DNA from: Amoebophrya sp. A120 | Lineage: Eukaryota > Protista > Dinoflagellata | Direction of reading: 5' to 3' | Length of the DNA stretch: 64,000 nucleotides | Assembly: GCA_905178155.1 (NCBI GenBank) | Contig: CAJINV010000001.1 | Location: 8,401,599 to 8,465,598 of the forward strand | In this document: positions 2,649 to 63,400 of the stretch, in pieces | Layout of the letters: every line of letters starts with the position of its first letter | How positions within the stretch are numbered: position 1 is the first letter of the stretch | The notes under the pieces: generated by a model | Told to the model about the DNA's origin: nothing | Database searches by the model: none | Seen by the model: the letters and a program-made list of their open reading frames with translations, nothing else | Translations under genes and position numbers: made by a program

Positions 2649-5600
2649 CTAGAATTCCATGGGCGCATCTAAGCCAGTTCCGTGAAGTAGTTGCTCTTCC
2701 CGCGCGAACTGCAGGTAGTTCTCCTGATCCAAGTATTTCGAGATGTTCACGTCCTCGGCTAGGCCCTTTCTTCTGCGCGTCTTCAGCATGAATTCCCGTG
2801 CCAGGTGCGGTATGGGTGCGGGCTCCAGCGGGCGCAGGAGAATGGACCGGTCCAGAGGATCGCCGGGTACCTGGGACCAGTGGTCGAACCAGGTGACCAC
2901 CATGGCTTGCCCGTTGCAGTGCGACCGCAAATCGGTTTCGAACCCGAACGACTCGATGACCGGCAGGTAGGCCTCCACGATGTACAAGGGGGAGCCTGGT
3001 TTCGGGAAATCTCGGGCGACGTGCCCCCTCCTCCGCGACAGAACGGTGTACACGCCCTGCACTGAGTCGGCCGGACAAGTGACTTCCGCAAAAAACACCG
3101 GCTCCATCATGCGTGGCGCAGCCATCAGAAAGGCGGCGTAGCTGCACCGTCTGGCGCACGGAATTAACTGACCGCCGCCGCGCATCTGCGGGTTCTCGTG
3201 CAGTCTCGCGTCCAGAAGCTTCCACTTCACACCCCGGATCGCCTCGTCGCATAGTGGACCTGATATTACGTTTTTTATGAAGATCGCGCCCGGAGGGCGA
3301 TATTGGTAACCAAATGCGTGCGCGAAAATCTAACCAGCGCGAAAGCCAAACCAGCCGCGCCACGAAAGCGCGGCCCTGCGGGCCGCGCTTTCGCCGCGCG
3401 GCTGCCACCACCATTTCTTTTTAATATAGAATCCCACTTCTTCGCCATTTATCGCGGGCCATCGGGGGCATCCGGATTCGCATTCAAAGCTTATCGCAGG
3501 AGCCTGCGGGCCGCCGCGGGCTCCACCACTTCCCCGCGGCCCTAAAGGGCCGCGGACAACTACTGTCGCCCGCGGCGGCCCGCAGGCTCCTGCGATAAGC
3601 ATTGNNNNNNNNNNNNNNNNNNNNNNNNNNNNNNNNNNNNNNNNNNNNNNNNNNNNNNNNNNNNNNNNNNNNNNNNNNNNNNNNNNNNNNNNNNNNNNNN
3701 NNNNNNNNNNNNNNNNNNNNNNNNNNNNNNNNNNNNNNNNNNNNNNNNNNNNNNNNNNNNNNNNNNNNNNNNNNNNNNNNNNNNNNNNNNNNNNNNNNNN
3801 NNNNNNNNNNNNNNNNNNNNNNNNNNNNNNNNNNNNNNNNNNNNNNNNNNNNNNNNNNNNNNNNNNNNNNNNNNNNNNNNNNNNNNNNNNNNNNNNNNNN
3901 NNNNNNNNNNNNNNNNNNNNNNNNNNNNNNNNNNNNNNNNNNNNNNNNNNNNNNNNNNNNNNNNNNNNNNNNNNNNNNNNNNNNNNNNNNNNNNNNNNNN
4001 NNNNNNNNNNNNNNNNNNNNNNNNNNNNNNNNNNNNNNNNNNNNNNNNNNNNNNNNNNNNNNNNNNNNNNNNNNNNNNNNNNNNNNNNNNNNNNNNNNNN
4101 NNNNNNNNNNNNNNNNNNNNNNNNNNNNNNNNNNNNNNNNNNNNNNNNNNNNNNNNNNNNNNNNNNNNNNNNNNNNNNNNNNNNNNNNNNNNNNNNNNNN
4201 NNNNNNNNNNNNNNNNNNNNNNNNNNNNNNNNNNNNNNNNNNNNNNNNNNNNNNNNNNNNNNNNNNNNNNNNNNNNNNNNNNNNNNNNNNNNNNNNNNNN
4301 NNNNNNNNNNNNNNNNNNNNNNNNNNNNNNNNNNNNNNNNNNNNNNNNNNNNNNNNNNNNNNNNNNNNNNNNNNNNNNNNNNNNNNNNNNNNNNNNNNNN
4401 NNNNNNNNNNNNNNNNNNNNNNNNNNNNNNNNNNNNNNNNNNNNNNNNGACCTTCACGCCTCCCGGCGGTTGCCCTATATGGTAACGGCAACTGCCTTCG
4501 CGCTGCGTTTGCTAAGCAATATCGCAAGCGCGCAGAGCGCGCGCGCCGGCTTCGTGGGCCGGCGCGTTTGGTTACCAGATCACCAGAAGTTTTGGAAATG
4601 CAGGAGCTATTCACGCATGCAATTTCCACGTTGCACATGGTCGCGTGCTTCTAAGCACATAGAGCACACACGGCCCTCTAGTACTGTCGCATTGCTTCTA
4701 GCAACGGATAAGTGCATCTGCATCTTGACCTACTTCGTGCTCTTACCCGGCTTCGGCTATTAGTATATACAGCTGAAACTGATTACTTTACCTTCTCGAC
4801 TTGCCCACTGGAACCCCTGCACGATGCTGTCCTTGCAGGTTTGCAGCAGCTGCTTATTCACATCCAGCGTATCGTTCAAGAGCATGTTGCAGCCGCGATC
4901 CGTCGGGCCAAAGCCCCAGATGCCCATGGCCGCGAGCAAATCCCACTGGTGCTCGTTCCGGAAGTAGTCCCGCATTTCCTTGCTGCCGAGCTCCCACGTG
5001 GGCAGGATGCGCCCTCGCTCGATATCGTCGTGCTATTGTGAGGAAAAATGCCCCCTCCCCATATCGAAAGCGAAATTTGTGCTGCTGTATTTGAGTACAC
5101 AAATCGCATTTGTCTTGCTGGAGAGGACTGCAGACCCATATCAAGCCGGAGTAGAGAGGCTTTGACTTAGGCACTTAGCATGAAAAGCGTCCGTGATGTT
5201 GGCTCAACAGCATGACAAACCGCCTCCATAATGGGACGGAAGCTGCTGCCCTTGTCTTCTTGCAACACAAACGTGATTTGTGACCTCAAATCAGCAACAC
5301 AAATTTTCGAAAACCTACTTCCCCAATATGGGGAGGGGGGATTTTTCCTTGCGATACGTGCACGGGTTTCTCCAGCGGGTCGCAGGTCATGAAGAGCTTG
5401 TATCCTGAGTAAAAACGTACCCACACCAGAGTCAAGATGGGGAATCGGCTAGACAAATCCACAAGCTTTGGCTGTTTTGCATGACAAATTTGGATTCGTA
5501 GCGTAGTGCTGTTTGAGCTAGCTCAGCAGCATCACAGATCTAGCATACCATGCTGATTGGAGCATGACAAATTGCAAAACATGACTAGAAAATGCTTCTC

Positions 5601-8600
5601 ATGGAGCTCCGCATGAGAAACATTTTCAGCATGCAGATTTGCATTACAACTCTGGTGTGGGTACGTTTTTACTCAGGATAGCTTGTTCTGTTTGTTCATG
5701 CTGTCGGCCTGGCATTTCATGCTACTGGTTTCGGACACTGTTTCTTGGAAGGACACGATGGGGTCGGAAACCTTGATTTCCAGATCGCCGTAGAGTCGTC
5801 GTAAGTCGTGCAATACGCAGTCCAGGTAGAGCTCGCCCGTGCCTGTAGAAAAGTCACAATTTCAATTTCATCTCACATTACGTTGGCAATAAGGCGTGGT
5901 GTTCTGATGAACCAGAAGGAGCGAATGAATGGAAATGGATTCAAGTGCCCTACGTAAAGAAACAAATTTTTCCATATAGTCAATACAGTTCTGTTGTATC
6001 TCTACCTTGTATGACGTGTTCTCCGCTTTCCTCTACTTTCGTGTAGCAGATTGGGTAACTCTTGTCGATTTTTCTCAACCCCGCGACCATCTTTGGCAAC
6101 TCGGAAGGATTCAGTGGCTCCAGTGCGATTTTGCAGCAGGGGGTCGTGCTGTGCGCCAGGGGACGGAAGATTTCGATTTCTTCTTCGATGTCCTGACTTG
6201 TGATAGTGCTGGTCTTCACGATCGTGCCGTCGACGCCCCCAATCAGGACCCAGTTTCCGGCAGGCACGTGCGAAATCTCGACTCGATATCGGCCCTGCGA
6301 GATCCAGAGCGACTGCGCCACGCGGTTCGACCGGTCTTCATCGTCAGACAGCGAGTAGTTCTCACCCAGGACTTGCACGCGGTCGCCCTGTTTTTGATGA
6401 ATATTTATTCAGCGTTAGATCATGGTAGGCCGGATCAGGTGTACTCAGTCTGATACATAGATATCTATGTAGAGAAACGAAAATCATGTAGTTGTCCTGT
6501 CGTACAACGATACCGTATGCAGCGTTCCGCTCATCACCCTCCCCAGCACATCGAAAGTGCTCAGATCTGGGTGGTGGTAGCACTTGACTGTGTGCACCAC
6601 GAGCTCTCCCTTGGGGTCCAGTGCGAGCATGTCTGTCGCGACTTTCCCGGTCTGGTCTCCTGTGTACGTCCTGTGCACCTTCAACTCGGCCATCGTGCGC
6701 GGGTTTCGGATGTGCTTCACCACCGCATCCACCAGGGCGCTGTTCCCCTGGAAGAAGTGCTTGCCGACGGATTTCAGCATGTTCTTCGTGGACATCTTGA
6801 AGTCGCGCTTGGGCATGTAAATCCCGACGGATTCGTAGATCGGAATCAGCGTTTCCTTTTCTTCCCCCAGCGTGTGGCCGATCAGTTTGTACAGCGGCTC
6901 CAGGATAAACGCGACGAATGTTCGCACCGGGTCCTCGAAGTCCTCCGGTGGCTCGCGGGCGAACTTCCGCGTCTCCTCATTGAAGTAAATGTCGCCCCAA
7001 AGGAGCGGCGCGAATTCTTTCCGGTCGAAGCTGTTACCGTACGTGTCGGCGTAGCTGTTTTTGATTTATTCTTGGGAATCCACATTTACTTACATAGATT
7101 ATAGCAAATACACATCGAAACCTCTCCTCAAGTAGGCTTCACCTTCAAAAAGGTTCCCATAAGAAACTACGCACAAAGTCGAATAGTAAGCTAGTAGCAA
7201 ATTCAATACATGGACGCGAAGCTGCCCAGAGAAAAGACGAAGTTGAAGAGGCCCGCGGCGAAAATGACGTTGCCCTTCGTTGGGGATAAAATCTTGCGCT
7301 GCGCCGGCACGTTCAGCATGGTGTGGATGTTTTCCAGGCAGGTGTTCACCTCGTCAATGGTGTGCTTGATTTTGTGGTAGGCGTCCGCCGGCGGGAGCTT
7401 CAACTCCGTGACCAACCGGTCGATTTTGTTCACGCACAAAACCACATCCAGTCCCTCCTGCACGACGTGCTTCAGGAGCCGCTCGTCGTGCGCGCCGACC
7501 CCCATGACCACGTCCACGACGAACAGAACCCCGTCCGAAATGCGCACGCCGGCCACCACCTCGTCTTGGAAGTTCGGGTGGCCCGGGGTGTCCATCAAAT
7601 TGCACAGGTAGGTCTTGTCCGTGCCGTCGGGCAACAAGAGCGAGATCGGGCTCGCTTTGATGCTCAATCCGCGTTCTGCTTCGTCCCTTCTCGAATCCAA
7701 AAACCGCATCGATTCCTGCTGCTTCGCCTGGCTGTCCTTCAGCTTCGTAGACTTAAATTCGTGGGTCTCGCGGATGGCGCAATCCACCAGCGTGGTCTTG
7801 CCGCTCTGCAAATGCCCAACAACCGCAATGTTGCGGATCAGCTCGGGCTCCTGCATAATGCCCGCCATGTAGTCGAACTTGAACGACGTGTCCGGAATCT
7901 GATTTTCATACGAATAAATTTGCACGTGGAGAATGCCGGTGTAGCAGGAGGTGAAAAATCAGTACATTTCGAAAATCAAAGGTCAAGCAGGGTATTTAAA
8001 CATCAACAAGCAGCACTAGCACACTACTGGACTAAAACTTCTCCTGTTCCGCCCACTAGTCAGAAAACTTTCCCTTATCCATACCTGCTTCTCGATGAGG
8101 TCGAAGTCGAACACCCGTGCTGGCGGGATGATTGGCTCCGTGATCGGCATGGTATCCTCTTCCTGTACCAACACCACCGCTTCCGGGCCGTATATCTCCT
8201 CCGCCTCTGGGTAGTACTGCTTGTCTTCGTGGAGCACCACCGCTCGTTTCTCTGGTGGCAGGTCCGGGATCACCGGATTCACCGCGGCCGCGGCCGAAGC
8301 CGCCTCGTCCATGCCGGAGGCGGCGTAGCCCCCGCCCGGCATGGTGCTGCCCACATCGACATCATCGTCCAGGTCCTCGTCGTATCAAATGCAAAAATGT
8401 CTGGGTCTGGAAGAATGCAACTTGTCATGCTAGATCTGAAGCATGCAAAAATCTGTGTTGCATGATTACCAAAAGTCGTCCAGTTTTGACCAAGTCGGGA
8501 GGGAGTTTCTCATGCAGGATAGGCATGAAAGAGATCGCACAGAATCTGTCATGTTAGGCCCTGCATTCCAGACCTCATGGGTCATGGAAAACCTGCGTGA

Positions 8601-8711
8601 CAAATCTCGCAATCTTCCAGACCCAGACATTTTTGCATTTGATACGTCGCTGTCGTCCGACAAGTCGCCGCCGATGTAGTTTCCGAACTCGTCGTACGCG
8701 GATTCGTCCAT
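2649..8711 (-). CDS. EFTUD2: U5 snRNP 116 kDa GTPase (Snu114), about 9 exons
   Basis: [15 protein letters not shown]-terminus; [16 protein letters not shown]; [11 protein letters not shown]; NKIDRL; [20 protein letters not shown]; RGGGQLIP; [10 protein letters not shown]; [16 protein letters not shown]. All are diagnostic of Snu114. Confidence 0.97.
3489..3600. repeat. Perfect 33-bp inverted repeat with nested hairpins
   Basis: GCTTATCGCAGGAGCCTGCGGGCCGCCGCGGGC (3489-3521) and its reverse complement (3568-3600). The loop contains CCGCGGCCCT-AA-AGGGCCGCGG. Confidence 0.9.
3605..4448. other. Assembly gap
   Basis: Run of N. Confidence 1.
5034..5356. mobile_element. Introner (family C TIR) in EFTUD2
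   Basis: TATTGTGAGGAAAAATGCCCCCTCCCCATAT...ATATGGGGAGGGGGGATTTTTCCTTGCGATA. Perfect TSD CGTGC. Removal restores EKPVHDDIERG. Confidence 0.9.
5401..5680. mobile_element. Introner (family B TIR) in EFTUD2
   Basis: Perfect 32-bp TIR TATCCTGAGTAAAAACGTACCCACACCAGAGT. Perfect TSD GCTTG. Removal restores [15 protein letters not shown], which aligns with Snu114 NKKNKITMIAEPLEK. Confidence 0.95.
8383..8644. mobile_element. Introner (family A TIR) in EFTUD2
   Basis: Perfect 32-bp TIR TATCAAATGCAAAAATGTCTGGGTCTGGAAGA. Perfect TSD CGTCG. Contains an in-frame stop. Removal gives [12 protein letters not shown]. Confidence 0.95.
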
Positions 8712-10132: not shown

Positions 10133-10388
10133 CTGTGAGGTTCCAATTTATTTCAGGAACTTATTTCGTATATATTTATTGTGAGTTCCAATCTTAGGAA
10201 CGAAGGTCAAGCGCCACGCTCGCCTATCATCATCATCATCTAACTGCACTGGGGGGGGAGCGTGCAATGGGTTGGGACCTGGTTCAAGTTCAACTTTGAG
10301 AGCAAGTCACAGTCAGGGCACAGCACGACTTGCTACGACTTTCGAGTCCATCTATGATCAAGACTTTTTTCTCGTGCTCTTTTCGCGA

Positions 10389-15698: not shown

Positions 15699-15822
15699 GG
15701 TCTGCAGCTGGGCGCCGACCTGAACCTTGAACCCCTCGATGTGGTTCTAGCATGCCCCGACCCGCCTCTGCATTTCCTCGCGCGAGGTGAGCATGTCCTC
15801 GCGCAGCGTGGCGAACTCCGTA

Positions 15823-23258: not shown

Positions 23259-23264
23259 GGAAAC

Positions 23265-23602: not shown

Positions 23603-24205
23603 AAAGCGGGAAGCACGGGCAAAGCGGGAAGCACGGGCAAAGCGGGAAGCACGGGGGAAGCGGGAGGCACGGGGAAAGCGGGACGCACGGGGAAAGCGGG
23701 ACGCACGGGGAAAACGGAAAGCACGGGGAAAGCGGGAAGCACGGGGAAGGCGGGAAGCACGGGGAAAGCGGGAAGCATGGGGAAACAAAACGGGAAGCAC
23801 GGGGAAAACGGGAAGCACGGAGAAAGCGCGAAGCACGGAGAAAGCGCGAAGCACGGGGAAGGCGGGAAGCGCGGGGAAAGCGGGAAGCATGGGGAAAGCG
23901 GGAAGCACGGGGAAAGCAGGAAGCATGGGGAAAGCGGAAAGCACGGGGAAAGCGGGAAGCATGGGGAAGGCGGGAAGCATGGGGAAAGTGGGAAGCACGG
24001 GGAAGGCGGGAAGCACGGGGAAGGCGGGAAACACGGGGAAGGCGGGAAGCACGGGTAAGGCGGGAAGCACGGGGAAAGCGGGAAGCACAGAGAAAGCACG
24101 GAGAAGGCGGGTAGCACGGGGAGGGCGGAAGGCACGGGGATAGCGGGAAGCACGGGAAAGGCGGGAAGCACGGGGAAAGCGGGAAGCCCGGGAAAAGCGG
24201 GACAC
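23603..24205 (+). repeat. 18-bp purine-rich minisatellite, about 33 copies
   Basis: Unit GGGGAAAGCGGGAAGCAC with point variants. Confidence 0.95.
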
Positions 24206-25864
24206 GCGGGCGGGTGGAGGGCACACAGAAGACGGGGGGCACGGGTTCGCTGGGAACGCCGCCGGCGGCCAAGCACCAGGCGAGCAGCTGCCCACCACCC
24301 TCCCCCGGCGCCCTCCCTCTGTTCGCGAAGGGAAAACCGCGCCCCAGCACCAGGCTTGCAGGCGAGCAACTGCCCACCACCCTCCCCCGGCGCCCTCCCC
24401 CTGCTCATGAGGAGGCCGGCAGAGGGCGCCACCGTCCGCCGCCTCTGCCAGTCTTGGAGGGTGCGCGCGAGGGAAACAGGCGGGGGCGGAGCAGATTTCG
24501 CGCGAGCTAACGCGGGGGGCGCCGTTGTTGTCCGGGGGTGCTGGGGGAGGGTGGTGGGCCCCTGCGCCTGGGGGGCAATGAATGCCCCGCCCCGGAGCCC
24601 GTCTTCCATCCACGCGCGCGGCAGGGGCCCCAGCGAGCCCCTTTTCTGCAAGGCTGCGCGCGGGAGAAGGGCGGGGAGGGGCGCCAAGGCGCGCAGGGGC
24701 GGGGCACACAGACAGGCGGCACGAGCGGGCCACACCACAAACGCGCGGGCGGGGCGTCACGCGCCAGCGCCTCGCATGGCGCGGATTGTTAGTTCCCTTG
24801 CCTCCTTCCCCCGTCCACTGGCGCCCGCCCGCTGCCGCGCTTTGCGTTGTTGCTTAGGCCTAAGGCTTGCCGCCACGCAAGCGCGCGCCCAGTGCGGGCG
24901 GGGTCCTCGCGCTCGCACAACGACGGGAACCACGGGCGCCCCATGGCGCTCCGCCTTCGTTCTTTCAGCAAGAAGCGGCGCAGATGCCTGGCCCCGCCCT
25001 GCATCAAAAAATTTCTCCCTTGCCCGACATCTGGCGTTTTTCTTTCCCCCCTGTCCACTCGTTCACCCTCCCACTACGCGACATAAGCTGCAGCCTTGTA
25101 GTATGTTGTGGTCCGCAGGGTTACTGCGCCTAAAATCTCTGAGTACGACTAAATTTTTTAGAAGGTACAACTTGAATTATTTTTATTTATGAAGAAGCTT
25201 CGCTAAAGGGCGAAGCGAGCTTCTTCTTGTTCGAAGCAGCGGGTACCAGCTTCGAAGTCTCGTCTCCTGAGAGGATGATGAATACCGACTAACTTTGAAA
25301 AAAAGGCAGCATCACGGTGACGTCGCGAAATGAGAATCCTCGACGGATCATTACGAAAAAATAACACGACGATGGTAACTGCACGACGGCAACTTCTTCA
25401 CGATGCGTCTGGATATTAAAAGCGAAGCAAGTACGAATCTACAGATGGATACCGAAACACGGCGCACGACTGGGTCCGACTGTCAAAAGTAAGTGTAGGA
25501 GGTACGAAGCAACAGGATTCGAAAATTTTGTGACGGCAGACCGAAATGGAGTACACGATCTGTCAAACGGTATCTTGTACGAGGAAAACGCATTATATCA
25601 GAAAACCGAGGGTGATGTCTCACGAGCTGCGCTGGCAGAAGGCGCGCCATGATAGCACGACCACGATAAAAACACAGACGAAATCAATACCCCACCGCAA
25701 GAGAGGCTGCCACGGAGACACTAAGGAATCTTCGACAAAATCTAAAAACTCTTAAAGTATAAAGAACTGCAAGACCGCTCCCGTTCAAGCGAGACTCGAA
25801 ACGAAACAAATGCTTTTCGACTAGCTCAGCAAAGAAGTCACACCAAGTTCTCCAGAGGAGAGCC

Positions 25865-35189: not shown

Positions 35190-37983
35190 TCAAGATGACC
35201 TGGCATTTGTTCTTCTTCCTGCGCATTTCGAAATGACTTTTTCATACTGTCGCACAGTTTCCTCTGCGGCCTCCTGCCAGCTGAAGAACAAACTTCCGCG
35301 AGCGCTGAGCCGCTCGCGCACATTCCGCACGGAAACGCGGTTGTCCGTCCCCAGGCGATTTAGGATCCGCACCAGGTCCGGCTCATCCCGGAACATCACG
35401 TCGCATCCGCTCGGCCCCAGCACCTGTTCGTAAAATTCCGCAAAGACCGGCGACTGCAAGGGAAGAAGAGGGAGCAAGTCGCACCCGAGGGCCTCGATGA
35501 CCGTGATTCCGAACGTTTCGCTTTCGGAGCACGTGAGAAAAAAATCACTCTCCCGGTAAAAAAGCTCCGGCAAAAGGTCGTTCGGGATGGCACCGCAAAA
35601 GGTCACATTGATGTCGCTTATCGACGCACTTGTTGTACTACTAGCGCCCCGTTTCGGACTTGCCGGGTTCGCTCCCTTCAATGGCGACGAGGATTCGCGC
35701 CCGCTCGACGCTGCCTTTGTGTTTTTCGCCGGAGATGCCGCAAGAATCTTGCCTGCGCCAGCGGACGCGGCTTTCGCTTTCGGCGACGACGTTGAAACAG
35801 GTACAACCCCGTTCGTCAGCTTCTTCCACTCGGCAAGCCCGTCCGGCCTTTCGTCCTCGCCGTGTACGAACTTGTGTATTCGTGCACTGGCAGCTTCCAG
35901 TGTTTTTTGCACCAGTGAGCTTTCCTGCTTCTCTGCCCCAGGCGACGACTTGTAGCAGGCTACAGCCAACTCTTCCAACTCCTTTCGCTTCGGCCCGTCA
36001 CCGCAAATAACCAAGTGAAAGCGGTCGCGAAAACGGCTGACCACCCGAATCGCGGTGTCCACATGCTTCTCCGGAGCCAGGCGGTTTACCATCAGCAGAA
36101 TCTTCCGCTGATTCGGGATCTGGAGAATCTTCCGCAGCTTCACTCCCGATTGCTTCGACGATGCTGCGCGCGAGGGCGACGATTTCGATGGGCTTTTTGG
36201 AATCGCATTCGGGTTCGTCCCACTCGCTTTTATTCCAGCATTCACAGTAGAACTCGATGCTGACGAGGAATTTTTTCCCAAGCCGCCGCCCCAGGGAATA
36301 CCAGCAGGAAAAGCGGGTTTTGGAGATTTACTGCCTGAACTGTCCTGCTTTGTTGACTTCGTTCCAGCTTTCGGCGGGGATCCATTTGCTCGGCTGTTCC
36401 CCCGCAAAACCAGGCTGCTCGTTGTTCCCCGGGATGGAGATGAAGCCGTGGTCGTTCTCGAGACTTGCGCAGGCGACGAAGAACCGCCGCGGCCCCGTTT
36501 TTCCGTGGGGGAAGACGAACTCGCGGTGGTTGTCTTACTCGTACTCGGACTTCTAGTGCCATCCGAAAACCTCGAGGGCACTGCAGTCGGAATCACCATG
36601 TAATTCCTCTGCGAATACGGACCCTGGCTGGAAGACATGCAGCGAAACATCTTCTTCTGGATGCAGTTGCCGGCTAGAGAACGGCCGCAAGAGGCGGCCA
36701 GACTGCTCAAGAAAGAAAAACACCCAAAAGATGATGTAGTAGGAGCTGCACTGCTTGTGATGTCCGATTCAGCTTCTCTTCTCTCGCTGCTCTCTGCGTC
36801 GCCGAACAGTTCCGGCGGCCTTGGGTCATTCGGTTGCAGTTTTGTTGTCGTATAGCTGGAAAAACAACGCTTGTCTAGGAAGCTGAACTATGAACTGCAA
36901 AAGTATCGTACTCGAATAAATGCATTACAAATTTTCTCAGCATGAGAAAGAAAATTTGTAAATGCTGATTTGCCTTGACAAAGATATTTGTAATGCAAGA
37001 CCTGCATTTATACGAGTACGATACTTTTGCACAGCATATGAACTCCTTCTGCATGGCGGCGAGCGATGGCGCTACGTTGGCGTCGCCGCAGAGGTATGGA
37101 TTGCAAAAGTGTCTGGGTCTGGAAGAATGCAACTTGTGATGCGCATTTCAGAACACAGAAAAATCTCTCATGCATAGGTAGCAAAAGCCGCCCACTTTCT
37201 GTCACCAAAGTGGGGGATTTGTCATGCGGATTCGGCATTGCGGAAGCTTCTCGAAACCTGTGATGCTAGAGCTTCCATGCCAGACCTTGTGTGTCATGCA
37301 AAAACAGCATGAATCTTCCAGACCCAGACATTTTTACATTTGATAAGAGAGCTGCCGGAACGCGGCCGGAGAGCGAGTAGGAATAGTCTGCGAAGGCGGA
37401 AAAGCAGCCGCTTGGCATGTAGGAGTTTACGTAATACACCATGTCTACGTGGTGACTCACATAGGTCGGCACACCGAGGAAGCGCGCACGAGTTAGGACC
37501 TATTTGTTGATGTTGCTTTCTGAATGTAGACCTCACAACTGCCTGCGCATAGTCATGCACTTGGTCGTTCTCGTTGCATATTCAGAAATAAAACATCATC
37601 CTCGAGACTCGAAAAATTGTCAGAAACTGCTATAATACCGCCAATGCCACCGCGGAGGGTAGGAAGATGTGGACGATGTCGGGTTCGAACGTGCGCATGG
37701 CTTGAAACAGATTCCAGCCCGGAAAGAGGCAAATCTGGTTTCCCTGGTTCCAGTAGTTGGTGATACACAGCCCCATCTTTCGGTAGATGCCGTCTGGGTT
37801 CCCTATTTGCGCCTCGTGTCTCAACTCCATATAACCCTCGGCCTCCAGCTCCTCTGCGCTTTTACAGGTGTAGACTTGCAATTCATGCCCGAGCTTTGCC
37901 ATCTCCAGAACCATGTTGCGCACATGAAGCGCGATACCGTGCACCTCCGTCGGTGAGTAGTCAGACACGATGAGAACGCGCAT
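35190..37983 (-). CDS. Glycosyltransferase family 4 (GT-B; glycolipid synthase/SQD2-like)
   Basis: MRVLIVSDYSPTEVHGIA, PDIVHI, VNRLAPEKHVD, ICGDGPKRKELE and SESETFGITVIEALGC (EX7E motif). Confidence 0.9.
36889..37038. mobile_element. Introner (family D TIR, 150 bp) in GT4 gene
   Basis: TATGAACTGCAAAAGTATCGTACTCGAATAAATGCA...TGCATTTATACGAGTACGATACTTTTGCACAGCATA. Perfect TSD TGAAC. Removal gives KEFSFLDK. Confidence 0.9.
37095..37345. mobile_element. Introner (family A) in GT4 gene
   Basis: TATGGATTGCAAAAGTGTCTGGGTCTGGAAGA...TCTTCCAGACCCAGACATTTTTACATTTGATA. TSD AGAGG/AGAGA. Removal gives PAALCGDAN. Confidence 0.92.
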
Positions 37984-38977: not shown

Positions 38978-41900
38978 TCAAGTTACATAATCCGATTTGT
39001 TTGCCCCTTCAGCATGATGGCACCAGCAGGCCGCTAGTCTGAAACTATAACTACCTTTCTTGTTCACATCAAAACACAGAATTAGTACCGCAGCCTCGCT
39101 CTCCCTTCTCAGTTGCTGGAAGCAGGCCTCTGCGGTTTGTGGAAACGAAGAATTGCTTGCGGACGGGGACCCCTGCTCCTCGTATCCCTTGGGCCCTCCG
39201 ACCTGCTGCGCCGTCTGGTCCCGGAGAAGTGTGGTGCCGGCAACAGCGCCGCCCGCCGTACTGGCACAGTCGTTGTACTGCGAATTCGGATAACCTAGGC
39301 TTGTCGCGGTCGACGTCCCCATCTGCGACGAGTTTTGTTGATGCTGCTGATCGAGGTACGGGGAGCCCTGCTGGATTTGCTGTTGCGGTGGACCTGCGGC
39401 TCCACCCAGAGGTGGCTGGTACTGCAGGACCGGCACGCCATTCAAGGCCGGCGTTCCCGTCACCTGCGGCGGATGGTGCTGTTGTAGTTCTGTTCCGACA
39501 GCAGCCCCCGGAGACTGTTGGTACTGCAAGTTTTGTTGCAGCTGTTGCTGGTCCAAGTACTGTGGCGGCTGCTGCGGACCTCCGATCTGCGGACCACTTG
39601 GACTTCCCAACGGTTGCTGCAAAGCGTGCTGTAGCTGCTGCTGCCCCGGCGTCATGCCCTGGTGTTGTAACTGCTGCTCGTTATTGTTGTACGCCGGATT
39701 GTTGTTCATATTCGTTGTTCCACCTAACTGCTCTGCTCCTATCGGCATCTGCGACCCCGGCGGGCCACCCCCTCCGAGCGGCTGCGCCGTGTTGTACGTT
39801 GCTTGCGGGAACAACTGTTCCCCGAGCGTTTGCGGCTGCACTTGATTCTGGTTCGTGGTGTACAAGAGTTGGTTGTCAAGCGGCTGCAGATTCGGACTTT
39901 GGTTCGCAGCCACGAACTGCTGATTTTGCGGATCGACCGGAAGCAGCTGCTGCGGCATGGGCCCCCCGGGAAGATGCATCGGGTCCTGCGGACCAGCGGC
40001 AGAGCTTGCTCCAGGAAACTGCTGCATGTTTGGCCCATTGTCCGGACCACCCGCGTAGTGGTCTAACGGCTGCTGCTGCGCAGGCTGCTGCTGCGGCGGT
40101 CCTGCTACGCCCATCTGGTCATTCCGCTGGTCCCACGCAGCAGCCTGGTTCGTTCCCTTGTTGCCGTAGTTATACTGCTGGTCGTTGTTGTAACTGTTGC
40201 CCTTACCGTTGTGGTACTTGTCTTTCCCGCTGCCTTTGTAGTTGTAATGATGTCCACCCTTACCGCCCCCGCCGTGGTAGTCTTTATCGCCCTTGTATGA
40301 ACTGTTGTAACTACCGTTGTCGCCTTTATACAACGAGCCGCCGTAGTTGTAATTCTTCCCCTTGCCATACGAAGAACTACCGTAGTGGTCACTCTTTCCG
40401 CCCTGATACCCCCCGCCACCGCCTTTGTTGCTGTACCCGTACGCAGGAGACCGCCCGCCATAGTCATTGCTGTAGCCGCCACCTTTGTGCTGTCCGCCAC
40501 CGTAACTGCACCCCCCTTTGTGCGCACCCTTGTTGTAGGAACCTTCTTCTTCTACCGAGCCGCTGCGATCGAACGAGGTGTCGCCATTGTAGCTGCCGTC
40601 GTTGTAATAATTGTTGCTTTTCCCGCCGCCGTAGGAATCGAAGTTTTGCTTTCCGTACCCGTAACCCTTTTTCCCACCGCCATACTTGTCCTTCGAAAGC
40701 GCACCCTTCTCCTTCCCCGACTTCTCGCCCAAGTATTCATACGAAATTTGAATTTCCCGGACGCGTATAATGATGCGGTTTCTGCATGACAGACCTTTAT
40801 TCCGTTCTTTCATCCTTCAACCCTATTCAGCATGACAAGAGGCGTGAACTTCTAAGTTGGCGAAATTTCAAATGCGTTCTTTTGTACGTGTACGGGAATA
40901 AAGCTGTATCGCATACCCAGCCCTCACCGTAGATGAAGCCGGTGGAGCCGCCCTTAACTTCTTCGAAAGTGAAATGGTCCTTGCCCAGCACGTATGCATT
41001 GCAAACGTTTCTGGGTCTGGAAGACTCATGCTGTTTTTGCATGACACAGAAGGCCCGGCATGGAAGCTCTAGCGTCACAGGTTTCCAGAAGCTTCCGCAA
41101 TGCCGAATCCGCATGACAAGTGCCCCACTTTGGTGACAGAAAGTGGGCAACTTTTGCTGCCTAAGCATGAGAGATTTTTCTGTGTTCTGAAATGCGCATC
41201 ACAAGTTTGCATTCTTCCAGACCGAGACATATTTGCAGTTCATAGCATGTACCCGATGGAATGGCCCTTGTCTCCCTTCTTACCCTTGCCGTAGCCTTTT
41301 TCTGTTTTGGTGAGTCATTGGAGAACACTTTTCTCGAGAAACGGGAACACAAAGGACCACGTCCTCAAAGTTAAGTAGTTGATAGCTGGGGCTGTTCCTG
41401 TTGTTACACAGCGAAGAGCAAGAATTTTGAAGATTAGATGCACAAACTACATCGCAAATCCAATACTTCCCTTCCCGCCGCCTCCCTTGCCCTTCTCGCC
41501 GTCGTCATGCGGCTTGTACTGGCCGATGGTGAGAATCGAAGCGAAGAGCTCGTTCTGGTACTTGTGGTCCAAGCAGCTATCAATCAGGTCCTCTTGCCAC
41601 TTACCTGTTTAGAACATTTTGGTGATGAAGAGTGCGTATCAATTTGTGATCCAGAAAACGACGTCCTCGCACCATGCGATCTGATGATTGAAAATGCATG
41701 TTGCGCGATTTCTGCACGTCGAGAGCTGCTTACCACTGGGGTGCGGCAAAATTCCGAACTCGTGGGGGTGCCCGAAGACCATGGTGGTAGTCCAGCTGAT
41801 GCTGCGAACGTGGAAGATATTGCCTGGAATATTACATATGTTGCATTTATCTTTATGATCTTCCGGATGCAAATGCGAAAAATAAGCATAACGACATGTA

Positions 41901-43189: not shown

Positions 43190-46100
43190 CTAGTCATCTT
43201 CCGATTCACTGCTGCTTGCCACGAGCTTCTCCCCCTCGGGCAGACCGGATGCAAGGATCGCGTCAAGCTCGTCCTCCTCTTGCTCTAGCTCGCCTATGCC
43301 GCTGCCAACGTCGTTTATCTGACATATCTCCACGTCGTAGTATACCTGGTTGATGAGGGATTTTTTGCTTGGGATAGTACCCGTGTATCTTATACCCGGT
43401 TGAGGGATTTTTTGGTTTGGTATGAATTCCGCGCCCGGTCGGGCGATACGGTAATCAATCGTTGCGCTGTTCACTTTGCGAAGAAAAAACCGCGACGCGC
43501 GCATTCCGGCGGCCGCGCCCGCGCGAAAACGGGAGGCGCAAACTATTCGGGCGCCAGAGAGGAACGAGCCCAAGGCGCTGCAAAGAGTGGAACGGATCAA
43601 GGGCGCCCCTTTGAGGGGCGGGTCGGGCTGCGCGCGGGTGATCGCGCGAGAATCCAAAAATTTTGGCGCGCCATACCGTCGCGCCTAATGTTACCCCGCA
43701 CGGTATGGCGGGCGCGTGATTTTTGCTCATTTTCGTGTGGGCTTTTTTTGGTTCATTTCTTGCATTTTTGCGGAGGGCGCTTTTGCACCTCAAACGCGAT
43801 GGCATTCGGCTTGATCAGGCGGAGGCCTCCGTCCCGAAAATGGCAAAACGTTACACCTCTAAACACGACTATACGCTGACTAAGCTTTCAGCGTGCCGCC
43901 GTGTTTGGCGGCCTGACAAATTTCGGATTGAGCGCAAGGCCCATTACAAATGGGCGATTTTTTTTCATTTTTTCATTTTTTTCTTGCGAAAGACGACGCT
44001 ACTGCGGACCCACGGAGGGTCCAATTTCGCTACTTTTTCGCAAGCGTACCGGGGGGATTCGCGACACAAAAAAACTCTCATTTTCCGGATACCAATGCGC
44101 CTATGGACGCAAAAATCACCATTTTTACACCTTCCCCCGGTGGGAGGCTGCGTTTTTGGCGCACCTTTTGGCCGCCCACGCGGCCGACCCCGGTTCCAGC
44201 TTAGCAGGCCCTTCCCCCGAAGCTACTGCCCCACTTTGGGGGGCGCCCCTTTGTTCCATCTAGATCCCCCGTAAGGTAATCCGCCGTCGCTTCCTTGCTT
44301 CGCAAATGGGAAGCGGCTTCGCCGGGCCCGGGGGGGCGGGGGGGCTTCCGCCCCCCCGGGCCCGGCTCACCCGAACGCAACGATTGATTACCGATAATAC
44401 CTGGTTGAGGGATACCCGTGTTTTATTTGAACACGCAAAATGGAGAACCAGAAGTGGCGGCACAAATGGTGAAGAAACTCGGGGTTGCCGGCAGGCAAAG
44501 ACAAATACGAGTACCCGCGTGTTGGGTGGTATTACTATCCCGGCGCCCCTGGACCCGTAGGCGTAGAAAGGGGACACGGATATTTCTGCTTTCTCGTGCA
44601 GGGACAAGCCTAGCACGCCCTCGTCGAGGCCGCGAACCACCTCGCCGTTCCCAACCACAAACTCGAAGGACTCTTTTCTCTCCCTCGTATCGTCGACCGT
44701 CTTCCAGTTTTTCTTCCCCTTGATTTTCTCCTCCGCGGTGAGGTCGACGTAGCGCAGGGTGTAGTGTATTCGGATGGTGTCCTATCAAGCAAAAAAACAC
44801 CATCACAATCACATCTAGGAGGTTTTGCATCAGAAATTTCTCTCGCATGACAAATTTTTGTTGTATTGCAAAAACACAAAGGGAAATCATCAATAAGTCT
44901 TGACTGTGATGCATTTTTGCGCATGACAAAAAATTTTGTATTGCAAAAATGTGCAAGAGTGATTGTGATGGTGTTTTTTTCTTGAATATGTCCCCCTTTT
45001 CCACGATGCAGTCCGGGTCCTTGTCCCGGCCTCGAACAATCTTGGTGACCACGATGTTGTCCAGCACTTCCTCCTATCAAATGCAGATATGTCTCGGTCT
45101 GGAAGATTTCTAGATTTGTCATGCTAAACAGAAGTGCGACACACTTTGCCTCCCCCTGTGCAAACGGCCGCAGATGGCTGTCACGCAGGGAAGGTGGGTC
45201 AGGCGGACACCGAAGTGCCATCGCCATCATCTCCCGGCCACTATACCAACTCGCCAACTATACCAACTTTTTTGCCTCACTTTCGCCAACAACGCCAACG
45301 ATTCCTACTCGCGACACATATAGAAAGCACAACCAGGACACCAGCAACAAGGATACTGGACCCTGCAGCACGGCTTTCATGTTAATCTATGGATAAATCA
45401 CATACGCCAAAAACATAGAAGAGAGTCAGAGGCGCTGTTTAGCTTCATCCAATGATAGGCGAGAAGCGGGCGTCGATGTGAAGAGCCCAGGCGGAGCTCT
45501 GGCGTGTCCTAGCAGCCGGTCTCTCCGCCGCGCCGGTCGTTCCTCCTACCACTTCGCTGGCTGCCGCCGCTGGGGCAAATACTTGGGGCCGAGGAATTTG
45601 CAGCAACACTTCTGGTCGTTGAGTGCCCCTACACATCTGGTCGTTGCGTGCTACGGGAGTAGGCCACACGTTGGGCCTACTGCTGAAAACTCCTCTAGCC
45701 CTGCCGCATTTGAGGAGACTCCTGCCGTTCCTTTCCACTCTGTGGCTCGCGATCCGTGCGCGCCTTCCGGCTGGCTTAAATGAATAGGCGCGCGGCTGCT
45801 CCAGCCCGCTGCCCCGGAGGTCATGATTTCGGAGTTGGTGTTTGGCGCTTCTATGTAGAAGCTAGCTCCTGCTACGAGGACGAAATTGAAAGTAAACAAG
45901 GACAAAGAAGATGGAGATACAGAAAGAAAAGAGAAGGAAACGGGTTCTAGATTTGTCATGCATATTTCCCATGACCCATGATGTCTGTGATGCATGCCGT
46001 GGCATTACAGATTTTTAGAGCGCTTTGTGATACCTCTACAGCATAAGAAATGCCCTCTCCGCGTGGCACAAACTGGAGTCCCCTTGCTGGTCATGCAATA

Positions 46101-46232
46101 CAAATTCTTTCAGAATCCAGAGACAGCATCACAAGTTTAGAATGTTCCAGACCCAGACACTTTTGCAATTCATACCTCCTCCTCACTGGAGACATCGAAA
46201 TCATCCACGACGAAGTCTTTGTAATTAGCCAT
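43190..46232 (-). CDS. FKBP-type peptidyl-prolyl cis-trans isomerase, 4 exons
   Basis: Spliced: MANYKDF...VEKGDTIRIHYT...FEFVVGNGEVVRGLDEGVLGLSLHEKAEISVSPFYAYGSRGAGIVIPPNTRVYYDVEI. Confidence 0.92.
43421..44393 (-). mobile_element. Helentron/HINE-like or MITE element in FKBP intron 43346-44514
   Basis: Perfect 18-bp IR CGGTAATCAATCGTTGCG (43449-43466 and 44376-44393). External hairpin CGCCCGGTCGGGCG and an internal ~19-bp GC hairpin at 44321-44366. Confidence 0.7.
44783..44988. mobile_element. Introner (family E TIR) in FKBP
   Basis: TATCAAGCAAAAAAACACCATCACAATCAC...GTGATTGTGATGGTGTTTTTTTTCTTGAATA. Perfect TSD TGTCC. Removal gives KGDTIRI. Confidence 0.92.
45075..46174. mobile_element. Introner (family A) in FKBP carrying a nested insertion
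   Basis: Family A TIRs at both ends and perfect TSD CCTCC. Length is 1100 bp, or 263 bp after removing the nested insert plus one 17-bp repeat. Confidence 0.9.
45125..45944. mobile_element. 820-bp insertion flanked by a 17-bp TSD
   Basis: TTCTAGATTTGTCATGC at 45108-45124 and 45945-45961, with a purine-rich right end. Confidence 0.8.
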
Positions 46233-52900: not shown

Positions 52901-53525
52901 GCTTGTATTCGTCGTACGTGAGCCAGGTGTACTTGTTCTCCAGCTCCAACTTTTCAAATTCCTTGCCACCCGGGGTGTCTGCGACCATGGTATGCATTGC
53001 AAATATGTCTGGGTCTGGAAGGGTGGTGGAACTTGTGATCCTGTCTGCGGATTCTAAAAATATGTGTGTTGCATGAGCAGCTAGAGGAGTCCAGTTCTTG
53101 GCCTGCGGAGAGGGCATTCTTCCTGCGTGATAAGCATTACTTAAGCACCCCTCAAAAAACCTGTGATGCTAAGACCTGCGTCACAGACCCCACAGGTCAC
53201 GCAACACGTGCATGACAAACCACGACTCTTCCAGACCCAGACATATTTGCAATCCATACATGTGCGTTTTGATCAACTTCCGGTACCCCGCGCACTTGTC
53301 CTTTCCGCCCCGCTTGCAGCCACTGACAAACACCTCCACCACCGACTTTTCCCCGGTTGGCAGGGTCTTCTTGATGGCAAACGTCCCATCCGCCTTGCGA
53401 TTCTGGGCGTGGTAGAGAATGGGCCCGTACCCCTCCGGCTTGTTGTTCGTTTTCTCGTCGAACAGGCCCCAAGGCGGCGGGCTCTGGGGCATGTCCTCCA
53501 CGGGGAGGGAGGCGCTCACGCCCAT
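49910..53525 (-). CDS. Long-chain acyl-CoA synthetase (ACSL3/4-like), multi-exon
   Basis: AVIMYTSG|TTGAPKGV, LPMAHIMEL, SGSAPL, YGLTET, PRGEILIGGP and WFRTGDIG...IIDRKKDL. Confidence 0.95.
52991..53258. mobile_element. Introner (family A) in acyl-CoA synthetase
   Basis: TATGCATTGCAAATATGTCTGGGTCTGGAAG...CTTCCAGACCCAGACATATTTGCAATCCATA. TSD CATGG/CATGT. Removal gives KTHMVADTPG. Confidence 0.93.
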
Positions 53526-56160: not shown

Positions 56161-57413
56161 GCCTTGTTCTGTAGTGGTGAGTCTTAGGGTACTTACGCGA
56201 GATTATGCAAATTTCCAGGACCACGCACAGTAAGCTAAGAGCCAATGACTTCTCGATAAAAAGCCCCTACTCTTATAATCATGGCAAACCAGGACGGGAA
56301 CTATCAGAACATGACCGGGCGAAAGAATGTCATGAAGAAGGTTATGGGCATCAAGCATGGAATTTTAGCACAAGGCACCTGATTGAAAGTACTTAGCAAG
56401 AGGCTATCTGCACGAAGGCACGTATCCGCAAACTGCATCCGATTGTACTTAGGTGGGTATGGACGAAACGAAGACGGGTGGAAGGAACGAAATGACCCGA
56501 CGCAACATAAAAGCACGAGTTCTTGGGGTTCTGAGCACGACCAGACGTAGCACGAAGCGAAACGCACAGACCGAAATTTTGTGAAATGAGCTGAAGTACC
56601 GCTAATGTAAGATTTTGGAAAGCTGCAGTACAGGACGATTTTGCTAAAGCGCAAGCACCGAAGGAAAGTGATGAAAGTAGTTCTCCGTTGCAACCGAAGA
56701 GCATACCTTCTGAATCCGCGTACGACAGCAGCTGATTAAGTGTAAGACACTGTTTGTAGTTGAACAACGAATAAAACCAAACTGTTTTTTCTCTTTGAGA
56801 AGTTCGCCCTGCTCGTTTGAAGATGACGAGGTACTGACAACATACTTAATTCCTGCCTGGAGTTCTTACTCCATTGTGCTTTTGGAAACTTCAATCTGCC
56901 ATTGATGTCTTAGAAACAAGTAGTGACGTCCGGTACAAGTAAAAGAATGCTTTGTGATGTAGAAAGAAAACTATAACGTAACTAGTATTGTACACTTCAT
57001 TTTTTAGAAAAAAATCAATGCAAACGAATCAGGAAAGACCAGCAGCATGTTTCATCTACTGCCTATCTGTCTGGATTTTTTGTCTCGGATACGACGAATC
57101 GCGGTCGACTTCACCTTCGGAAGCACTAGATTGTCGTCTTGATCTTGCTCCAGTGTCGCAATGAAATTTTTTTCCTTCCCGCTCAACATACCAGCACACA
57201 GTTTTTGTCGCCGATGATTTTCAGCCTGATGCAACTCCATCCCCTTCTGCAAAGCACGAGCCAGACAAAGTGGATCGAATACTTATTAACGCGAATCCGT
57301 GTCCAGCTGCTCCTGCGATGCTTCTACAAAATTATCGTGTAAGATGTTGACATCTCGTGGGGATGTTGAACAACAATACCGCAGTGGGATGTTGAGCTTT
57401 TGAGAAAAAAACT

Positions 57414-60400: not shown

Positions 60401-63400
60401 TTGTCGAAGTTGTTGTGCTAGTCGTCGTCGACGACGTGAATGTAGTCGTCACTGTGCTCGTCGTCGTCGTCGTTGTGGTCGTCGTCGCGCCCGGCGCCAG
60501 CGTCGTCGTCGTCGCGGCCGGGTCTAGCGTTGTCGTAGTGGTCGTCGACGTGGTCGTCGTGCCTGTGGTGGTTGTGCTTGTCGTGGTTGTGACGGTCGTG
60601 GTAACTGTGGTGGTCGTCACTGTCGTCGTTGAGCTGGTCGTGCTCGTCGACGTCGTGATCGTCGTCGTCACCGTGGTAGTGGCGCCTGGCACGTAAATCG
60701 TAGTGGTCGTCGTGGTCGTCAACGTCGAGGTGGTGGTGGTGGTGGTCGTGGTCGTTGGTAGCGCGCCCATCAAGCAACTTTGGGTCTCGGTGTCCAGCAA
60801 GTCGTCCAGCGCCCGCTGAAACTTGTTCGTGATCGGCCGCGACGTTTTCGGACTGTTCCAGTTCGCCGGCGTGAGGGAATTCCGGAGCGCCTGCGCCACC
60901 GCGGGAACCGACGCGGGCTGGAGGCCGAGCACGACCGCGGGGAAGGTCACATTGTAGACGGCGTACGCGGTCGGGTCGGCCGCGCCGGGACACTCCGGGT
61001 CGGCCCGCAGCTGGTACCGGTTGGCCGGCACGAACTCCGGCGAGTACACGTCAAACGCCGGCACCAGCACCGCGTAGTTATCCACCAAGTACGCAAACAA
61101 CGCGCCCAGCAGCACCGGCGCCACCTCCGTCCGCAAGCACGCCGCGTCGCAACCAACCAGAATCAGCTCCTGCCAGAAATCGAACTGGTACCCGACCAAC
61201 ACGATCGTCGTGGTCGACGTGGTCGTCGACGTGGTGGTGGACGTGGTTGTTGTCGTGGTGCTCACCGTGGTCGTGATGGTGGAGGTCGTCGTGGTCGACG
61301 TCGTCACGGTGGTCGTCGATGTCGTGGTGCTCGTCACGGTGAAGGTCGTCGTGGTACTGGTCGTCGTCGTGACCGTCGTGGTACTGGTGGTACTCGACGT
61401 GGACGTCGTCGTGCTCGTTGCCGTCGTGGTGGTCGTGGTCGTCGTCGTTTCCGTGCTCGTCGTCGTGAGCGTTGTGGTGCTAGTGGTCGTCGAGGTGGTG
61501 GTCGTGGTGGTCGTCGCGGTCGTGGACGTTGTCGTGGTGGACGTCGTCGTGGTCGTGCTGGTTTCCGTGAAGGTTGTCGTGGTCGTCGTGGTGCTGGTAC
61601 TGGTCTCCAGGGTCGTCGTGGTCACGGTCATCGTCGTTGTGGACGTCGTGGTCGTGGTACTGGTGGACGTCACCGTGGTGGTCGAGGTGGTGGTCGTGGT
61701 CGTGGTCGACGTGGTGGTGGTAGTCGAGGTCACCGTCGTGCTGGTCGTCGTCGTGGTCGACGTCACGGTCGTCGTTACGGTCACGGTGGTGCTCGTGGTG
61801 GTGGTGGTGGACGTAACCGTGGTGGTGTCGGTCGTCGTGATCGTTGTGGTGGAAGTGGTCGTCGACGTGGTCGTCGTGGTGGACGTTTCGGTGGTGGTGC
61901 TGGTCGTGGAGGTAGTGGCCGTGGTCGTCGACGTGGTGGTCGTGGTGGCCGTCGTCGTGGTGGAAGTCGTCGTGGACGTGGTCGTGGTTGTGTAGGTCAC
62001 CGTCGTGGTCGTCACCGTCGTGGTGGTCGTGGTGGTGGTGGTGGGCAGTGCCACAAACCGCTCCGGGTCGTACGGGACCAGGTTCCCGTCCACCATCCGC
62101 AACCCGGGGCCCGCCGCCCCCGCCGCCCCCTGGCCCTCCTGCGCCGCGTAAAAGTTGCCGTACAGCGCCGCCTCCAGGTACGGCCGCATGCGGATCCGCC
62201 CGCCCTTCAGCGCCAGGTCCTCCTCGAACGCGTACGCGATCGCGTCGTGGATTATCAGCGCGTTCTCGTACGTGTCAACGCCCACGAGCTGAATGCGGAA
62301 GGAGTGGAACTTGGCGAGGGGATATCAAACGCAAAATTCGATCGATGTTTCTGCGATCTACGGATCACTCATGAGGTAATACTTTGTGATGCGCAACAGC
62401 TCGTAGGCGCCTTGGAGACTATTGGCAAAGAAGTGCTGTCACGGAGGACGAGATCAGTTCTTTTACACTTTACATGATGGTTGGGCCCTTCTTTGGAAAA
62501 ATATTTGACCCGAGCTACTTCCGGTGCATGCAGGATGTATAACGTCGTACAAAAATGTAAGTAAGGCATTTCTACTTCGCACAGAAACCACATCAAATTT
62601 TGCATTTCATAACGTTTCCCCGTCTGCTTTAGGACCGGGTGGCACACAGATGCTTTCCGGGCTAAGAGCGAACATACCGTATTCGGTGGCGTCCAGGAAA
62701 CCGTCTTGAGTCGCATCGATGCAGGTAAACAGTTTCTGCGCAAACGCCATGCGTTCGTTACTTAGATCACCGCCGAAATACTCCGCCTTTTGGAACTCAC
62801 TCAGCTCAATTCTTGTGGCCGGGTTTGATATGGGGCCGCTTACAAGTCCGATATCCGAGGAGGGGTTTGAGGTTCCGATATCCGCGTAGGTCGGCAATGT
62901 GGTCGGCAGCTGCGCAAGCAAGTTCGTGAGCGACACCGTGTAGGTTAGGCTGACCACATCCCAGGTGTGCTTGCAGTCACAGAACTATACTCAAGCAAAC
63001 CGCGCGAGTCGGTCCTGTGATAAGAACGTACCTCGTTAAATGCATCTTCGTCCACCTCTGCTTGACAGCGGCAGAGGATTCCGTCCTCGGAGCCTTTGAT
63101 ATTCAGTGGCTGTGCAAAGATTATTTTGTGCGAATATGTCGACTACCGCATGACAAAATTCTTCAACTTCCATGGTACGCCTATAAGGCAAAAACAAGGA
63201 AAACGACCGTGCAAGAAGAAAGTGTGGACCACCACTTCTGGATCGTCTTTCCACAAGTGCAACAATGACCAGGGTAATTATATCTATTTGTCATCACTGA
63301 GACCGCGCAGCGCGCTTCTTCTCCAACTTGCATAACAAACTGTAATCCACTGGTCGCCCGGTCGAGGACGTCGCTGCGGGCGTCGTGCCCACCAGGCCAC

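Follow-up and report, generated by a model that had tools for sequence, protein, structure and literature searches.

Amoebophrya carries tens of thousands of non-canonical introns; in excerpts of two studies, no sequence signal common to them is given, and transposases are few or absent (PMC7789003, PMC12130899). Its introner elements, as set out in excerpts of the first study, have terminal inverted repeats (TIRs) of 8-20 nt that form a hairpin, and direct repeats of 3-5 nt across their boundaries. They have no boundary consensus, average ~240 nt in strain A120 and occur in thousands of copies and many families; the genes of Amoebophrya lie in long co-oriented clusters (PMC7789003). Here, we analyzed a 64-kb stretch of the A120 genome (contig CAJINV010000001.1, positions 8,401,599 to 8,465,598, hereafter the window), in which elements with unlike TIRs share a ten-base motif, GCATGACAAA, or TTTGTCATGC when read on the other strand.

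The motif was clustered in short insertions of 109-631 bp, plus one of 1,100 bp. Those in the window interrupt the coding exons of its genes, all of which lie on the minus strand. Their anatomy comprised a 5-bp direct repeat of the target, 5'-TAT...ATA-3' tips and family-specific TIRs of 22-40 nt. They had no common intron ends, hairpin-forming end repeats and 5-bp direct repeats, and every structural feature given for the introner elements of strains A25 and A120 in excerpts of PMC7789003 was found in them. The elements belong to this published kind. They also had the properties of miniature inverted-repeat (MITE), or non-autonomous TIR, transposons: they were small and numerous, lacked coding capacity, and had TIRs and a constant length of target site duplication (TSD). 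Summed word depth of the DNA run, which is not equivalent to copy number, was ~26 on unique DNA and ranged from thousands to hundreds of thousands in bins with elements; 9,382 contigs were placed in the same analysis. The elements are miniature transposons that serve as non-canonical introns.

The ten-base motif across element families

In the window, GCATGACAAA or its reverse complement occurred in 10 exact copies, compared with 0.10 expected from 100 dinucleotide shuffles (maximum 2). An earlier note, made from the sequence of the window, had listed nine of them. All nine proved exact, and the tenth, on the minus strand at 45952, had been overlooked. Relaxing the match gave 30 copies at ≤1 mismatch and 130 at ≤2 mismatches, the latter divided between 11 element intervals (53 in 3.6 kb) and the remaining 59.6 kb (77). 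Two of the 11 intervals were chosen partly by the motif. The k-mer comparison proposed in the earlier note placed GCATGACA at the top of the 8-mers enriched in these intervals, with 16 copies inside and one in the other 59.5 kb.

Further copies were obtained from a metagenome scan with two exact motif copies 60-90 nt apart as the query, which returned at least 121 loci. At least 30 of these (62.9 kb) came from one assembly, with contig names beginning JACKZZ01. These 30 matched the window only within elements, with identity reaching 97.5% over 283 nt, and because the match was restricted in this way they are further locations in this genome or in a closely related one. Elements were then delimited by a finder blind to the motif, which demanded TAT...ATA tips, a 5-bp TSD (≤1 mismatch) and complementarity at 15 or more of 20 TIR positions. 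It returned 67 elements in ~127 kb (57 in the 30 loci and 10 in the window); on 10 block shuffles it returned none nine times and one once. The TIR bodies of the 67 elements formed at least 12 families. The 25 elements holding the seeded motif pair were set aside, leaving 42 that were independent of motif ascertainment.

Among the 91 scan loci from other sources (160 kb), the finder returned no elements, only rows of TA low-complexity sequence. At L001, L009, L036, L040, L049, L052, L059, L062, L085 and L094, the motif pair lay within a different repeat, ending ...GCTTCG..CTCAGCATGACAAA. These loci were mostly on prokaryote-like contigs of other metagenomes, and the repeat is unrelated to the elements. 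Overall, the motif pairs at the 91 loci belong to other repeats or arose by chance.

The 42 non-seeded elements held 97 sites at ≤1 mismatch in 11,604 bp, or 8.4 per kb. At least one such site was present in 41 of the 42, and the exception had four at two mismatches. When the 10 finder-defined elements were taken out of the window, seven sites at ≤1 mismatch remained in 59,780 bp (0.12 per kb), with a chance rate of ~0.06 per kb by arithmetic. Three of the seven lay in two elements that the finder had missed (40734-40915 and 62323-62611) and one in a canonical intron. The 11 listed canonical GT-AG introns (2,866 nt) held one of the 30 window matches at ≤1 mismatch. Site density outside the elements was thus far below that inside, ordinary introns were nearly free of the motif, and the remark of the earlier note that it was not noticed in exons held.

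The interior words most widely shared among the 12 families with non-seeded members were without exception versions of a single motif: GCATCACA in 10 of the 12 families, GCATGACA and GTCATGCA in nine each, and the full 10-mer in seven. Read in the TTTGTCATGC direction, the consensus was (T/C)(T/C)TG T(C/A/G)ATGC, preceded by A in 65 of the 97 sites. The 10-mer was found two to six times inside every TIR family. It was repeated in both directions, as first described; at ≤2 mismatches, 56 of the 67 elements had both.

Simple homology between the family interiors was examined with 14 family representatives, trimmed by 30 nt per end and compared in 91 pairs by local-alignment z. With the sites left in place, 73 of the 91 pairs reached z ≥3 and 36 reached z ≥5; after the sites were masked, six and four pairs did so. 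Because masking dropped the pairs from 73 to six, the motif accounts for nearly all detectable similarity between family interiors. One of the remaining pairs, family E and a second family, shows true interior homology, with z = 27 after masking. The observation that families A to E carry the motif in interiors without other detectable likeness was confirmed. Both conditions that the earlier note named as refuting it, a similar motif frequency in background DNA and interiors homologous along their length, thus turned out in its favour.

The same note had called the TIRs of these families different. Their bodies do differ, but the tips, an A-run and the TSD length were common to all families. 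All 28 representative arms began with TAT, had C or G at position 4 and continued with variable bases, and each of positions 11-15 was A in 21-26 of the 28. TSDs were exact in 59 of the 67 elements and always 5 bp; the finder itself demanded TAT tips and a 5-bp TSD, and RNA joints and reading of the sequence agree on 5 bp. Because all families share the TAT...ATA tips, the A-run and the 5-bp TSD, they form one superfamily, whose TIR bodies and interiors diverged beyond recognition while the 10-mer did not.

The ~4 bases behind the TAT tip (positions 4-7) were highly variable among copies of one family, even between the arms of one element. Variants such as CAAATG, GCATTG, GGATTG and GAACTG were seen, for example at 8383, 37095, 40993 and 52991 in the window and in loci L003-L121, and the next 20 nt were nearly invariant. 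The variable bases may be a trace of end processing.

The elements are already known, and no description of the motif was found in print. It is not described in the main text or one supplement of PMC7789003 or, as far as excerpts of these sources extend, in the text of PMC12130899, whose datasets may hold consensus sequences showing it, or in PMC12787238, a 2026 review mentioning the genus. The literal motif string gave matches in the literature, and among the matches listed all were unrelated.

Candidate roles of the motif

Sites had a preferred place in the element. Going inward from the tip, the first site past position 20 that reads TTTGTCATGC started at 29-32 nt in 25 of 134 arms and at 36-43 nt in 59. 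The sample of arms was dominated by family A. By element, the first-site distances were ~40/40 in 20 elements, ~31/40 in 12 (subfamily A2) and ~31 on one arm only in 11 (mostly family B). The form A-TTTGT[C/G/A]ATGC usually adjoined the inner TIR edge, with extra copies in either direction in the interior. The same layout at the TIR edge was found in representatives with unrelated TIR bodies (families K, M, H, E and C).

The sites were also constrained. In the 27 copies of family A, conserved islands coincided with sites, and mean column conservation was 0.91 in the TIR, whereas interior columns averaged 0.80 within sites and 0.63 elsewhere; seven of 2000 random block sets reached the value for sites. 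For the 14 non-seeded copies it was 0.81 vs 0.72, with 92 of 2000 random block sets reaching the value for sites. In three close subfamilies (5, 9 and 5 copies), departures from the consensus amounted to 42 of 810 positions at sites (5.2%, seeded sites excluded), 274 of 2,748 in the other interior (10.0%) and 74 of 1,140 in the TIR (6.5%), counts that are not independent, as the copies share ancestry. As judged from these alignments, the site is more conserved than the remaining interior.

The reading we prefer, at a probability of about 0.48, is that the 10-mer is a putative double-stranded DNA binding site of a shared trans-acting transposase, or of its DNA-binding partner, that mobilises all families. 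One protein would recognise both the tip that all families share and the 10-mer. For the TIR body, self-complementarity would then suffice, leaving it free to diverge between families, and the TIR hairpin in the RNA would join the two exon ends for removal. Whether the motif acts on DNA or on RNA, one reader of the 10-mer is favoured because each of a dozen unlike TIR bodies would otherwise call for a matching transposase of its own. If one protein reads the 10-mer rather than the TIR, the coexistence of many TIR families would be explained. A 10-mer common to every family, at a set place by the TIR, could also serve as bait for a trans-acting protein, and it provides a simple marker for annotating introner introns. 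The earlier note had proposed either an iterated transposase-binding site or a protein or RNA-pairing signal marking the element for excision. A constrained, shared cis-element is common to both and stood; the data do not decide between DNA and RNA but lean towards DNA.

Several points weigh against a shared transposase site. The families are probably related, so that 12 families count for fewer than 12 independent cases, and all data (~127 kb) come from one organism or close relatives. Putative transposases are reported for only one of two Amoebophrya strains in excerpts of PMC7789003, and no transposase was found among the 30 window open reading frames (ORFs) scanned. In nine of the 67 elements, mostly of family D, neither tip had a site reading inward in its first 70 nt. 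Sites next to both TIRs often extend the stem that the TIRs form, and with both directions present in most elements, an RNA reader would meet its site in most elements in either orientation. The low site divergence among close copies would also fit selection on each inserted copy, which would point to a role in the host transcript, not in transposition.

Removal of the elements from RNA bears on this choice. Runs X3 and X5 were called RNA-type since their contigs skip GT-AG introns; no run covering the stretch is on record as RNA. Of the 27 RNA-type joints, 15 were listed. The contigs skipped at least 11 ordinary introns, with CT..AC ends that equal GT-AG on the minus strand, and at least four element-sized stretches without common boundary dinucleotides (Table 1). 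Each element joint had 2-5 letters of ambiguity, as expected from the duplication, and the elements leave the RNA together with one duplication copy. In-silico excision of an element with one TSD gave a single open frame for 5034 together with 5401, for 36889 together with 37095, and for 1124; excision of only one element of a pair did not restore the frame. Splicing of the elements at 1124, 5034, 5401 and 8383 was read from contig piece ends and frame logic, because repeat joints from the DNA run swamped the joint table. The raw RNA runs X9 and X10 covered no exon of the window.

X9 reads, which carry the same species label, matched only the right TIR (37312-37345) of a family A copy. A loose end before this TIR, containing GCATGACAAG, was shared by 93 reads, and behind the TIR 72 reads had another flank in common. 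The pattern resembles that of a well-expressed transcript from elsewhere in which a family A copy is kept.

The motif might alternatively act in the RNA as an excision signal, the main rival reading, which we regard as doubtful. The TIR arms would form a stem of 30-50 bp with the two exon ends meeting at its base, and the 10-mer, present at the top of the stem and in interior hairpins, would be read by the removal machinery, which could count off a set distance to the base of the stem. The varied ends of the skipped elements agree with this, as does the set distance of the first site from the tip, which is the stem base. Two folded elements were far stabler than their shuffles (z -11.5 for 8383..8644 and -10.8 for 5401..5680). 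In both, the terminal stem is predicted to set the two duplication copies side by side, and in the former, of family A, the TIR stem runs on through the two paired subterminal sites. In minimum-energy folds, the paired fraction of bases was 0.74 at sites and 0.61 in the other interior. The near absence of the motif from the listed canonical introns, the presence of both site directions in most elements, and the equally low divergence of sites and TIRs among close copies, which fits selection for removal, count in the same direction. However, only 46 of 188 sites paired with another site (≥6 nt), and the sequence was conserved rather than covarying. Motif-to-motif pairing as a general rule was rejected on this count, and the suggestion that opposite copies pair in the folded RNA is weakened. 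The tip-to-site distance also falls into two classes, the near-tip site is missing in some families, and a part of the interior in removal is hypothetical.

Orientation adds to this. The orientation of an element relative to the transcript is directly readable, because all window genes run the same way, and the 11 window elements divide five to six by majority site direction. The family A copies at 40993 and 52991 are oppositely oriented, and the RNA-type contigs skip both. In family B the sites run in one direction only, yet the copies at 1124 and 5401 are oppositely oriented and both have to be taken out for an open frame. Because elements whose sites all point one way are introns whichever way they lie, it is unlikely that a single-stranded RNA word is what is read.

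In a bolder form of the RNA role, introns would be removed by a new kind of system that ignores splice sites and uses the 10-mer as its recognition code. A protein bound to the 10-mer at the top of the TIR stem and in interior hairpins would direct both cleavage and joining 30-40 bp off, at the base of the stem. We hold this to be unlikely. If true, it would make tens of thousands of insertions with arbitrary boundaries harmless in coding exons.

The motif might also have no function of its own. All families would then descend from one ancestor with an interior of tandem units, and the motif would be their slowest-decaying or most re-duplicated remnant. The shared tips, A-run and TSD length make common descent likely, family E and its homologous partner retain a common interior, and in a MAFFT alignment the sites of families A, B, C and D fall into colinear columns. 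Distances between successive sites in the window and the JACKZZ01 loci clustered at 31-34, 47-50 and 83-89 nt, roughly multiples of 17. The ~17-nt period was weakly suggested (Rayleigh p ~0.002, uncorrected and with redundancy within families) and may reflect an old tandem unit. The helical periodicity that the earlier note had raised was absent (Rayleigh p 0.08-0.71 for periods of 9-12 nt). Neutral descent would not, however, preserve the 10-mer in 41 of 42 elements while the sequence separating the sites loses detectable similarity. Nor would it lower divergence by half at the sites of a subfamily or keep a TIR-edge site in families with unrelated TIR bodies, and MAFFT aligns a repeated word regardless of homology. 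Passive descent is improbable.

Very improbable is a mark of the host, in which a DNA-binding or chromatin protein (e.g., HMG-box-like) would silence, bend or tolerate the elements: an iterated DNA-level site that works in either orientation would suit it, and the TTTGT/ACAAA core presumably resembles HMG-box sites (we take the Sox/Oct matches of a text search to be coincidental), but the binding protein is hypothetical and the set place beside the TIR is more in keeping with recognition of element ends than with a general mark.

Coordinates and other features of the window

Table 1 Elements, element joints and isolated motif copies in the window. TSD, target site duplication; where two are given, they are the two copies. 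mm, mismatch(es).
Feature	Position	TSD	Motif sites	Remarks
Family B element	1124..1407	CGTCG	≤1 mm: 1174, 1317, 1351, all minus	RNA-type contig piece stops at 1117; in-silico removal with one TSD leaves one open frame
Family C element	5034..5356	CGTGC	exact: 5210 (plus); 1 mm: 5109 (minus)	With 5401..5680 also removed, 458 nt of the EF-G-like gene form one open frame
Family B element	5401..5680	GCTTG	six, all plus; exact: 5479, 5562; 1 mm: 5611; 2 mm: 5448, 5529, 5641	Perfect 32-nt TIR
Family A element	8383..8644	CGTCG	TIR-adjoining: 8421 (minus), 8595 (plus); interior, 1 mm: 8506; 2 mm: 8441, 8523, 8545	RNA-type contig piece stops at 8377
Family D element	36889..37038	TGAAC	36922 (plus), 36940 (plus), 36987 (minus)	150 bp; frame restored only by removal together with 37095..37345
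Family A element	37095..37345	AGAGG/AGAGA	exact: 37218 (minus); 1 mm: 37290 (minus); 2 mm: 37133, 37164	Frame restored only by removal together with 36889..37038
Element with degenerate TIR ("F")	40734..40915	CCAAG/CCCAG	40784 (plus), 40830 (plus)	TAT...ATA tips; missed by the finder
Element joint	40728>40916			Ends CC..TA; RNA-type contigs
Family A element	40993..41244	GCACG/GCATG	all plus; 1 mm: 41039, 41111; 2 mm: 41165, 41196	Orientation opposite to other A copies
Element joint	40986>41244			Ends AG..AT; RNA-type contigs
Family E element	44783..44988	TGTCC	exact: 44845, 44921, both plus	
Element joint	44777>44989			Ends TG..TA; RNA-type contigs
Family A element	45075..46174	CCTCC	exact: 45115, 45952, both minus	1.1 kb, with interior of ~0.8 kb
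Family A element	52991..53258	CATGG/CATGT	exact: 53210 (plus), adjoining the right TIR	
Element joint	52985>53259			Ends CA..TA; RNA-type contigs
TIR element	62323..62611	no matching TSD	1 mm: 62383 (minus)	TAT...ATA tips; from sequence only
Exact motif copy	63148..63157		plus	Sole exact copy outside recognised elements; low-GC stretch

In the 1.1-kb element at 45075..46174, a 17-nt direct repeat, TTCTAGATTTGTCATGC, flanks the interior at 45108-45124 and 45945-45961 and ends in the motif. From its sequence, the element looks as if foreign DNA had been captured or inserted exactly at a site. Within the interior, 45160-45873 is covered by separate RNA-type contigs of 713-714 nt, and two ORFs of the element gave no Pfam family. 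The TIR element at 62323..62611 sits between two minus-strand ORF segments (ORF edges 62324 and 62610). About 140 nt downstream of the isolated exact copy at 63148, a two-mismatch copy at ~63288 runs in the opposite direction, and the stretch 63148-63300 may be an old degraded element.

The DNA is eukaryotic, and the genes of the window encode COG3, an EF-G-like GTPase, a glycosyltransferase, an LRR protein, VIT1 and an AMP-binding enzyme. No RNA family of Rfam matched the window. An assembly gap (N run) at 3605-4448 is adjoined by a GC-rich palindrome at 3485-3604, with arms of 59 nt that are 86% complementary and separated by 2 nt; DNA-run depth was raised there as well. At 23700-24850, the GC content reached 0.76, and many GGGGAAGGCGGGAAGCACGG-like units and their complement lay inside overlapping long ORFs on both strands, for which no Pfam family was found.

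Comparison with known systems

Repeated subterminal motifs bound by a transposase are known from Ac/Ds (hexamers), En/Spm (12-mers) and the P element (internal 10-bp sites beside 31-bp TIRs). The elements of the window resemble them in having a short motif that is iterated inside both TIRs, in both directions, and kept in non-autonomous derivatives. The nearest geometry is that of the P element, in which a long TIR is followed by an internal 10-bp site. In contrast to these systems, which have one TIR sequence per motif, here one motif, a putative binding site, goes with at least 12 unlike TIR bodies. Membership in hAT, CACTA or P was rejected, as their TSDs are 8, 3 and 8 bp, respectively, and those of the window elements 5 bp.

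Transib and RAG elements have a 5-bp TSD, a terminal CACNGTG heptamer and a bipartite end, in which a set spacer separates a terminal from an inner element. The 5-bp TSD, the bipartite end and two spacer classes about one helical turn apart (here ~31 and ~40 nt) are points of likeness. A Transib- or RAG-like identity was rejected because the tips read TAT, not CACNGTG. The arms of one element were mostly of the same spacer class, by which a 12/23-like rule was rejected too. No RAG-like or Transib-like gene was seen among the 30 window ORFs scanned.

Short TSDs of 4-6 bp would fit an integrase-type enzyme. Excerpts of PMC12130899 describe intron-generating TIR elements with integrase-like (Copia/Gypsy-like) ORFs in A120, and also Ginger transposons; the elements of the window resemble the former in being intron-generating TIR elements of Amoebophrya.

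The nonconventional introns of euglenids are likewise non-GT-AG, and their ends are brought together by base pairing; the Euglena code, according to excerpts of PMC12501133, is a CAG/CTG pair near the boundaries. Here, by contrast, the conserved word sits 30-40 nt inward, with further copies in the interior, and the elements are transposon copies with TSDs. To the introner elements described in excerpts of PMC7789003, the elements of the window add a 10-mer inside the element, TAT...ATA tips common to every family and a duplication fixed at 5 bp.

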